Part shown: positions 61,970 to 62,377 of the stretch, one piece after another
How the letters are laid out: each line of letters opens with the position of its first letter
How positions within the stretch are numbered: the stretch's first letter is position 1
NCBI RefSeq assembly: GCF_003334305.1
Contig: NZ_QOWS01000021.1
DNA: 64,000 nucleotides
Direction: 5' to 3' (one strand)
From: Escherichia coli
GTDB taxonomy: Bacteria > Pseudomonadota > Gammaproteobacteria > Enterobacterales > Enterobacteriaceae
Notes under the pieces: generated by a model
What the model saw: only the letters and a program-made list of their open reading frames with translations
Told to the model about the DNA's origin: nothing
The model's database searches: none
Made by a program: the position numbers and the translations under genes

Positions 61970-62377
61970 GTGTCGAATCCTTATCCAAAACAAGAGGTAA
62001 CTCTCATGCTTCATACTGCCAATCCCGTCATCAAACACAAAGCCGGTTTGCTCAATCTGGCTGAAGAACTCAGCAACGTATCAAAAGCCTGTAAAATCAT
62101 GGGCGTTTCGCGTGATACGTTTTATCGTTACCGCGAACTGGTCGCTGAAGGCGGTGTGGATGCGCAGATTAATCGTAGTCGCCGCGCTCCTAACCTTAAG
62201 AACCGTACCGATGAGGCAACTGAACAGGCTGTTGTTGATTACGCCGTCGCTTTCCCGACACATGGTCAGCACCGGGCCAGCAACGAGCTGCGTAAACAGG
62301 GGGTTTTTATCTCCGACAGTGGTGTCCGTTCTGTCTGGTTACTCCATAACCTTGAGAATCTCAAAAGACGATACTGA
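61970..62377 (+). pseudogene. Transposase N-terminal (HTH) fragment, IS remnant lacking catalytic domain
   Basis: 135 aa MSNPYPKQEVTLMLHTANPVIKHKAGLLNLAEELSNVSKACKIMGVSRDTFYRYRELVAEGGV...; resembles IS481/IS3-type transposase N-terminus; no DDE domain follows. Confidence 0.5.

Follow-up and report, generated by a model that had tools for sequence, protein, structure and literature searches.

The window analysed here, a stretch of 64,000 nucleotides from an Escherichia coli contig (NZ_QOWS01000021.1), closes at its right end with the chromosome segment allR-allA-allS-mnmH (selU), followed by debris of an Rhs element. Behind selU, the ORF listing of the window gives a plus-strand frame at 61970..62377, with a GTG start and a length of 135 aa. 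Homology places the transposase start at the ATG at 62006, which is also the start of the intact homologues and is preceded by a GAGG Shine-Dalgarno motif at 61994–61997. The frame read from this ATG spans 62006..62377 and encodes 123 aa; the first 12 codons from the GTG of the longer ORF are probably spurious. The NCBI pipeline puts ylbG at window positions 62006–62371 and describes it as a pseudogene for a ‘helix-turn-helix domain-containing protein’ that is ‘incomplete; missing C-terminus’. In a megablast search of 5,426 complete E. coli genomes, the region 61850–62950 was 100% identical to many of them, including K-12 MG1655. As both its sequence and its chromosomal position (between mnmH/selU and the RhsD element) agree, the feature is the already annotated E. 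coli K-12 pseudogene ylbG (b0502). The K-12 locus and the window share allS, mnmH, ylbG, the Rhs fragment and ybbD as neighbours. No difference was found in the remnant itself, whereas the 3′ part of selU and ybbD differ slightly, and the identity of 61600–62900 to one MG1655 record was 99.1%.

The original prediction had described a 135-aa ORF with a helix-turn-helix (HTH), transposase-like N-terminus. We reproduced this ORF, including the peptides quoted for it, and its matches to an IS481-family profile and to HTH Pfam models showed that it is not a chance ORF. Residues 24–133 aligned with positions 2–112 of the 284 positions of NCBIfam NF033577 (IS481 family transposase, E = 2.8e-25). The score of 89.4 bits is far below the full-length cutoff of 224 bits, as expected because ylbG is a fragment. 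Pfam detected only DNA-binding modules in the ORF, namely HTH_29 (1–64 of 64, E = 3.7e-20), HTH_28, HTH_23 and HTH_32 (1–73 of 73); the search found no rve domain and hence nothing of the DDE catalytic core (rve/rve_3). Judged by these profile matches, ylbG is an HTH-only N-terminal remnant of an IS481-family transposase. IS481 of Bordetella pertussis and its family carry a single ORF for a DDE transposase with an N-terminal HTH, and the NCBIfam IS481 equivalog model is the best match here; the similarity of IS481 itself to the parent type of ylbG is distant and confined to the protein level.

Intact relatives of the remnant, with ~94–96% DNA identity and the annotation ‘IS481 family transposase’, were recovered by plasmid and chromosome searches from Escherichia and Salmonella plasmids and chromosomes. 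Some depositors call them ‘ISSod13’, a name that stands as a depositor label only. The intact element is 1201 bp long (reference locus L002:1502–2702) and encodes a transposase of 346 aa; an example is the copy at 112595–113795 of the E. albertii plasmid NZ_CP099872.1 (transposase WP_256878404.1). The intact transposase scored 293 bits on the IS481 model (cutoff 224) and contains HTH_29 (11–74), rve (162–267) and rve_3 (256–326). The left end of the intact IS, TGTATTAGTCGCGACTTGATCTGACAC, and its right end, reverse-complemented TGTATTAGCTCAGACCTGATCTGACAG, agree in 21 of 26 bases. Perfect direct duplications of 7 bp (ACTAAAG, ATTAAGG, ATTTACA and TCTTATC) border four independent copies, which marks the parent type as a genuine IS with recent activity. 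These AT-rich 7-bp target duplications differ from that of IS481, which is 6 bp long (NCTAGN). A full-length IS was present in 77 of the 5,426 complete E. coli genomes, at up to 7–9 places per genome.

We resolved the anatomy of the remnant by blastn of 61801–63000 against the intact IS and by base-level comparison of variants. The selU stop codon (61888–61890) is followed on the plus strand by a native spacer of 13 bp, TGAGGGACGTATT (61891..61903), and then by the left terminal inverted repeat (IRL) at 61904..61930 (plus strand). Homology begins with the very first base of the IS, so the left inverted repeat is intact; it is base-by-base identical to the IRL of four intact or end-retaining copies (L002, L003, L008 and L010), its first 12–15 bases match three more (L015, L017 and L018), and it agrees with the reverse-complemented right end of the intact IS at 21/26 bases. 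The IRL sequence occurs exactly only this once in the window, where chance alone would give 0 occurrences. The whole plus-strand segment 61904..62370 corresponds without gaps to IS 1–467 (448/467, 96%) and comprises the IRL, a 102-nt leader and transposase codons 1–121 or so. Inside it begins the ylbG frame of 123 aa plus TGA (62006..62377, plus strand), in which NCBI annotation, Pfam and NCBIfam placed the HTH_29/HTH_32 domains only.

The second blastn segment, 62362–62430, corresponds to IS 931–999 and overlaps the first by 9 bases. The overlap, CAAAAGACG (62362..62370, plus strand), marks a deletion junction with microhomology, for it resembles both IS 459–467 (CAAAAAACG) and IS 931–939 (CATAAAACA; CGCAAAACG in the Salmonella variant). 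The deleted stretch is IS 468–939, or 472 bp. As 472 is 3n+1, the reading frame shifts and meets a TGA at 62375–62377, so that the ORF ends before the DDE region; the last ylbG codons and the stop are made by the out-of-frame junction. Beyond it lies an internal IS piece (62371..62430, plus strand; IS 940–999). It covers codons about 280–299, within the rve_3 region, and its frame is not that of ylbG. Plasmid matches to this stretch carry the annotation IS481 family transposase. Over all of 62362–62430, the E. coli/E. albertii IS shared 56/69 positions (81%) with the window and the Salmonella plasmid variant 59/69.

No IS sequence other than 1–467 and 931–999 was found, and IS 1000–1201, including the right inverted repeat, is absent. 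The remnant and the intact 1201-bp IS have in common the left inverted repeat, the leader hairpin, the first 121 codons (96% at the DNA level) and the 60-bp piece of the rve_3 region; the intact IS also has the rve core, the right inverted repeat and the 7-bp duplications, whereas the copy in the window lacks IS 468–939 and 1000–1201. The original prediction that the ORF stops before any catalytic region was therefore correct, as the rve/DDE core (residues 162–326 of 346) went with IS 468–939. Its statement that no inverted repeats were evident holds for the right repeat, of which the whole 64-kb window contained no match at up to 3 mismatches, but not for the left one at 61904–61930. Joining the frames did not restore a complete transposase, since only IS 1–467 and 940–999 of the 1201 bp survive. 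With one inverted repeat and no catalytic domain, the remnant cannot transpose by itself, and because the second end is absent it also lacks what mobilisation in trans needs.

At 62429/62430 the IS piece is fused to the N-terminal fragment of an rhs core gene (62429..62525, minus strand), which we take to be ylbI of the K-12 databases. The fragment comprises the first 32 codons. Aligned with the initial 97 nt of the island's main rhs gene, it agrees at 77/97 positions, with the start codon ATG changed to ATT; its translation, ISGKPAARQGDMPQYGGPIVQGSAGVLIVAPT, aligns with MSGKPAARQGDMTQYGGPIVQGSAGVRIGAPT. Its reading direction is towards selU, and the IS piece truncates it after codon 32. Plasmid matches to the fragment were annotated as RHS core or rhsB. 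The original prediction of an old IS insertion or deletion scar beside Rhs was thus borne out, in that the remnant directly adjoins the Rhs fragment.

On its other side, the remnant defines the border of the island. About half of E. coli lack the whole Rhs island and have the arrangement selU-spacer-ybbP, in which the spacer measures between 58 bp and about 700 bp. Strains with and without the island are homologous up to a point 13 bp past the selU stop, at the IRL, so the left repeat is the exact selU-proximal edge of the Rhs island. Empty-site flanks resembling TGAGGGACGTATT read TGGGCGGTATT/CTG in strain M18 and TGGGGGATT/CTG in strain VTB96815v, and the left flank ACGTATT matches this native empty-site sequence. 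Such a pattern suggests that the left end of the remnant is a clean transposition junction against native sequence. In island-less strains, the selU–ybbP spacer can hold dinQ (‘damage-inducible type I toxin DinQ’) and REP-like repeats (L006 4631–4786 in E. coli M18, and many others), and the spacer sequence matched a median of 25 places per genome.

Taken together, the locus very probably holds a dead IS481-family remnant, ylbG, that arose by one insertion and two later deletions. In this history, a 1.2-kb IS would have landed 13 bp behind selU (mnmH), in the short spacer native to the site. The DDE core would then have been lost to an internal deletion of 472 bp between short similar sequences (CAAAA.ACG), and the resulting frameshift would have given rise to the TGA at 62375. 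A further deletion would have run from IS position 999 into a neighbouring rhs gene of opposite orientation, as far as its codon 33. With it, the IS would have lost its right inverted repeat and the target duplication on that side, and any spacer that remained would have disappeared together with nearly the whole rhs gene. The relic was then most likely inherited vertically with the RhsD island. We infer the order of the deletions, and their mechanism, from the junctions, because no genome with an intact IS at the selU site was found: among the E. coli genomes, 2,706 of which carry 62425–62895 at ≥99% identity, neither an intact IS at this site nor a longer rhs fragment was detected. Shorter matches (H128 and H129) were considered as more complete ancestors and rejected, as they proved to be secondary IS3 insertions or deletions.

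The internal IS piece is much more diverged from the sampled E. coli IS than the left part, which implies either that the parent came from an unsampled or mosaic lineage or that two copies were involved. If two copies were involved, the ‘internal deletion’ would be a recombination joint of two different neighbouring IS481-family copies, an E. coli-type copy beside selU and a more divergent one nearer the rhs gene, with the intervening DNA deleted. Supporting this idea, identity to the sampled E. coli/E. albertii IS falls from 96% in the left part to 81% in the 69-bp right piece (Fisher p = 4e-5), and the latter is closer to the Salmonella plasmid variant (59/69). However, the sampled lineages differ here too: the E. 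albertii copy and the Salmonella variant agree at 57/69 positions of this piece, yet at about 90% over 665 bp. Given that sampled lineages diverge in the same stretch, the numbers, which concern 60–69 bases only, are explained equally well by one parent whose lineage was unsampled or mosaic. We regard a joint of two copies as unlikely, and descent from one parent of an unsampled or mosaic lineage as the simplest reading of the alignments. With one parent or two copies, the outcome is the same, a dead remnant.

Internally deleted derivatives of the intact IS do exist. An 804-bp copy on the Salmonella Heidelberg IncX1 plasmid NC_021842.2 (L010 501–1304) is without about IS 491–881 and keeps both ends and a perfect 7-bp duplication, ACTAAAG; it occurs on several Salmonella plasmids and is possibly a non-autonomous, MITE-like derivative. 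As a candidate parent of the remnant it was rejected, because its deletion end points differ (491–881 versus 468–939). The existence of such derivatives raises the question of whether ylbG itself could be a non-autonomous, internally deleted element that is still mobilisable. This is extremely improbable. The window holds no right inverted repeat within its 64 kb, and thus not the pair of repeats of a MITE; the IS homology ends at internal position 999, where it is fused to the rhs fragment; the deletion end points are not those of the 804-bp derivative; and the remnant occurs once per genome, at a single fixed locus.

We then turned to the distribution of the remnant, which is carried by about 2,900 of the 5,426 complete E. 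coli genomes. Over 62265–62345, 2,132 of 2,910 carriers were identical to the window and 778 differed within those 81 bp, some of them by a 1-base gap. A frameshifted allele at the same locus (P0088, 132 aa), shifted after residue 100, was found in 11,905 index blocks of the assembly collection, and its shift is consistent with the loss of one T from the T5 run at 62304–62308. Further broken alleles are P0030 and the ylbG of strain SRY206 (L004), which is annotated as ‘frameshifted’. The non-coding neighbour 62425–62895 was ≥99% identical in 2,706 genomes; ylbG is no better conserved than this neighbour, and its high conservation is expected from recent common descent of the island alone. A rare allele on one ENA contig (P0005, 197 aa) contains the sequence ...LENLKLNNFYQVTFRKKLYG...; a few further bases seem to be missing at its deletion junction, and its frame then extends across both the internal IS piece and the antisense of the rhs fragment.

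To compare codon changes, we aligned ylbG with three intact copies, taking a Serratia copy as outgroup, over 279 nonsynonymous and 84 synonymous sites. Of the changes specific to ylbG, 9 were nonsynonymous and 3 synonymous; neutrality would predict about 3.3:1. The test counts only 12 codon changes, and in it the ylbG branch includes its time as an active IS before insertion. Between the intact E. albertii and Serratia copies the ratio was 20:33, which differs from the 9:3 of ylbG at Fisher p = 0.026. Purifying selection on the ylbG frame, as would mark a domesticated regulator, was not detected in this small sample. The most likely reading of the sequence is that the 123-aa HTH-only frame is a non-functional relic inherited with the RhsD island, and the common frameshifted allele argues for decay over domestication.

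A leader hairpin bears on the same question. Its arms (61946–61956 and 61996–62006; 61946..62006, plus strand), identified as inverted repeat I1 and by RNA folding, involve the ribosome-binding region and the initial A of the ATG start codon in base pairing. Folding of 61904–62030 gave −34.8 kcal/mol (z = −2.9), a stability reached by 0 of 200 shuffles, with the hairpin as the dominant stem. Start-region hairpins are common in IS elements and block translation of read-through transcripts; by its predicted fold, the hairpin here would likewise mask the translation start. A promoter and terminator scan of 61700–62900 found no sigma-70-like promoter, and one terminator-like hairpin, which is at chance level.

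These data also weigh against a retained or domesticated HTH-only protein that acts as a trans-dominant inhibitor of incoming IS copies or as a local regulator. In its inhibitor form, this explanation predicts that the truncated transposase N-terminus still binds IS481-type inverted repeats; IS1 InsA and IS911 OrfA are parallels among N-terminal transposase derivatives. Several observations would suit it: HTH_29 and HTH_32 are complete, the Shine-Dalgarno motif and ATG are intact, and in most carriers they are so; the ORF is found in about 2,900/5,426 complete genomes, identical in most; even the common frameshift allele keeps residues 1–100, leaving the HTH domains intact in both common alleles; and some databases label ylbG a ‘DNA-binding transcriptional regulator’. 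Nevertheless, the frame ends only through an out-of-frame deletion, its 9:3 ratio sits at the neutral expectation, unlike the 20:33 between intact copies, and frameshifted alleles are common. In addition, the start-masking leader hairpin has been kept, and 61700–62900 offers no sigma-70-like promoter. Finally, among the matches listed, many chromosomes with an intact IS show at least 2 places, which suggests that intact copies coexist with ylbG and hence that there is no obvious exclusion. We judge domestication very unlikely and retain the relic as the preferred reading.

Similarly, we see only a slim chance that YlbG, or the left end with its structured leader, acts in trans or in cis, or that the antisense of the IS left end yields a small RNA. 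If this were true, incoming IS481-family copies might be bound by YlbG at their inverted repeats and transpose less often in the roughly half of E. coli that carry ylbG. A literature search found no functional study of ylbG, only integration-site uses or gene-list entries. The sole Rfam match, psRNA2 (RF02349), lies at 61832–62003 of the window on the minus strand, antisense to the IS leader, and is sub-threshold (31–37 bits where the gathering score is 65; E about 1e-5). The portion that aligns well covers the first ~100 bases of the IS left end. The match was also found at L015 143–300, L018 116–300 and L008 223–401, and since all intact copies show it, the Rfam family seems to overlap with the terminus of IS481-type elements.

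The pseudogene has long been annotated and is an ordinary, decaying scar of a mobile element; it matters little and opens no new question. It is a textbook case of insertion sequence decay and of how an IS can mark and reshape the border of an accessory island, here the selU-proximal edge of RhsD. The anatomy, with its left end, microhomology deletion and rhs 5′ fusion, explains the string of small pseudogenes annotated at this locus in K-12, and also why the ybbD–ylbG interval is a safe landing pad for engineering. This interval routinely serves as a neutral integration site in K-12 (PMC2847246, PMC4659464, bioRxiv 10.1101/2020.01.04.894907).

The neighbourhood was also predicted to be prone to rearrangement, and other strains bore this out with additional insertions and deletions involving IS1 and IS3; the region is an active hotspot for IS-mediated rearrangement. 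In other strains, an IS3-family element directly follows ylbG, with differing deletions of the Rhs island (L004 4816–5978, L005 4864–6026), or an IS1 copy lies inside 61850–62950; strain ECZP248 has lost almost the whole Rhs island.

Upstream of the rhs 5′ fragment, the AT-rich stretch 62574–62756 is about 86% identical to L014 6001–6185, part of another Rhs-type region that some E. coli carry near pptA/ydcC, between two ISAs1-family (H-repeat) transposase genes and vgrG. From this match at a second Rhs-type region, Rhs-associated non-coding DNA appears to be shared by different loci. Next to this stretch, a ybbD-family ORF (62892–63383, minus strand) is uninterrupted in the window, with 163 aa, and related loci show the Pfam domain YbbD_head. 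In K-12 and strain UTAK-13, the ybbD stretch is annotated as two short hypothetical proteins, and UTAK-13 differs by an indel near 63144. The window ends inside the main rhs gene (63364–63819 and 63806–64000, minus strand), where a 151-aa ORF starting MNGIDPLGL represents the variable C-terminal toxin tip that follows the end of the conserved rhs core. In strain UTAK-13, this main rhs gene is annotated as frameshifted.
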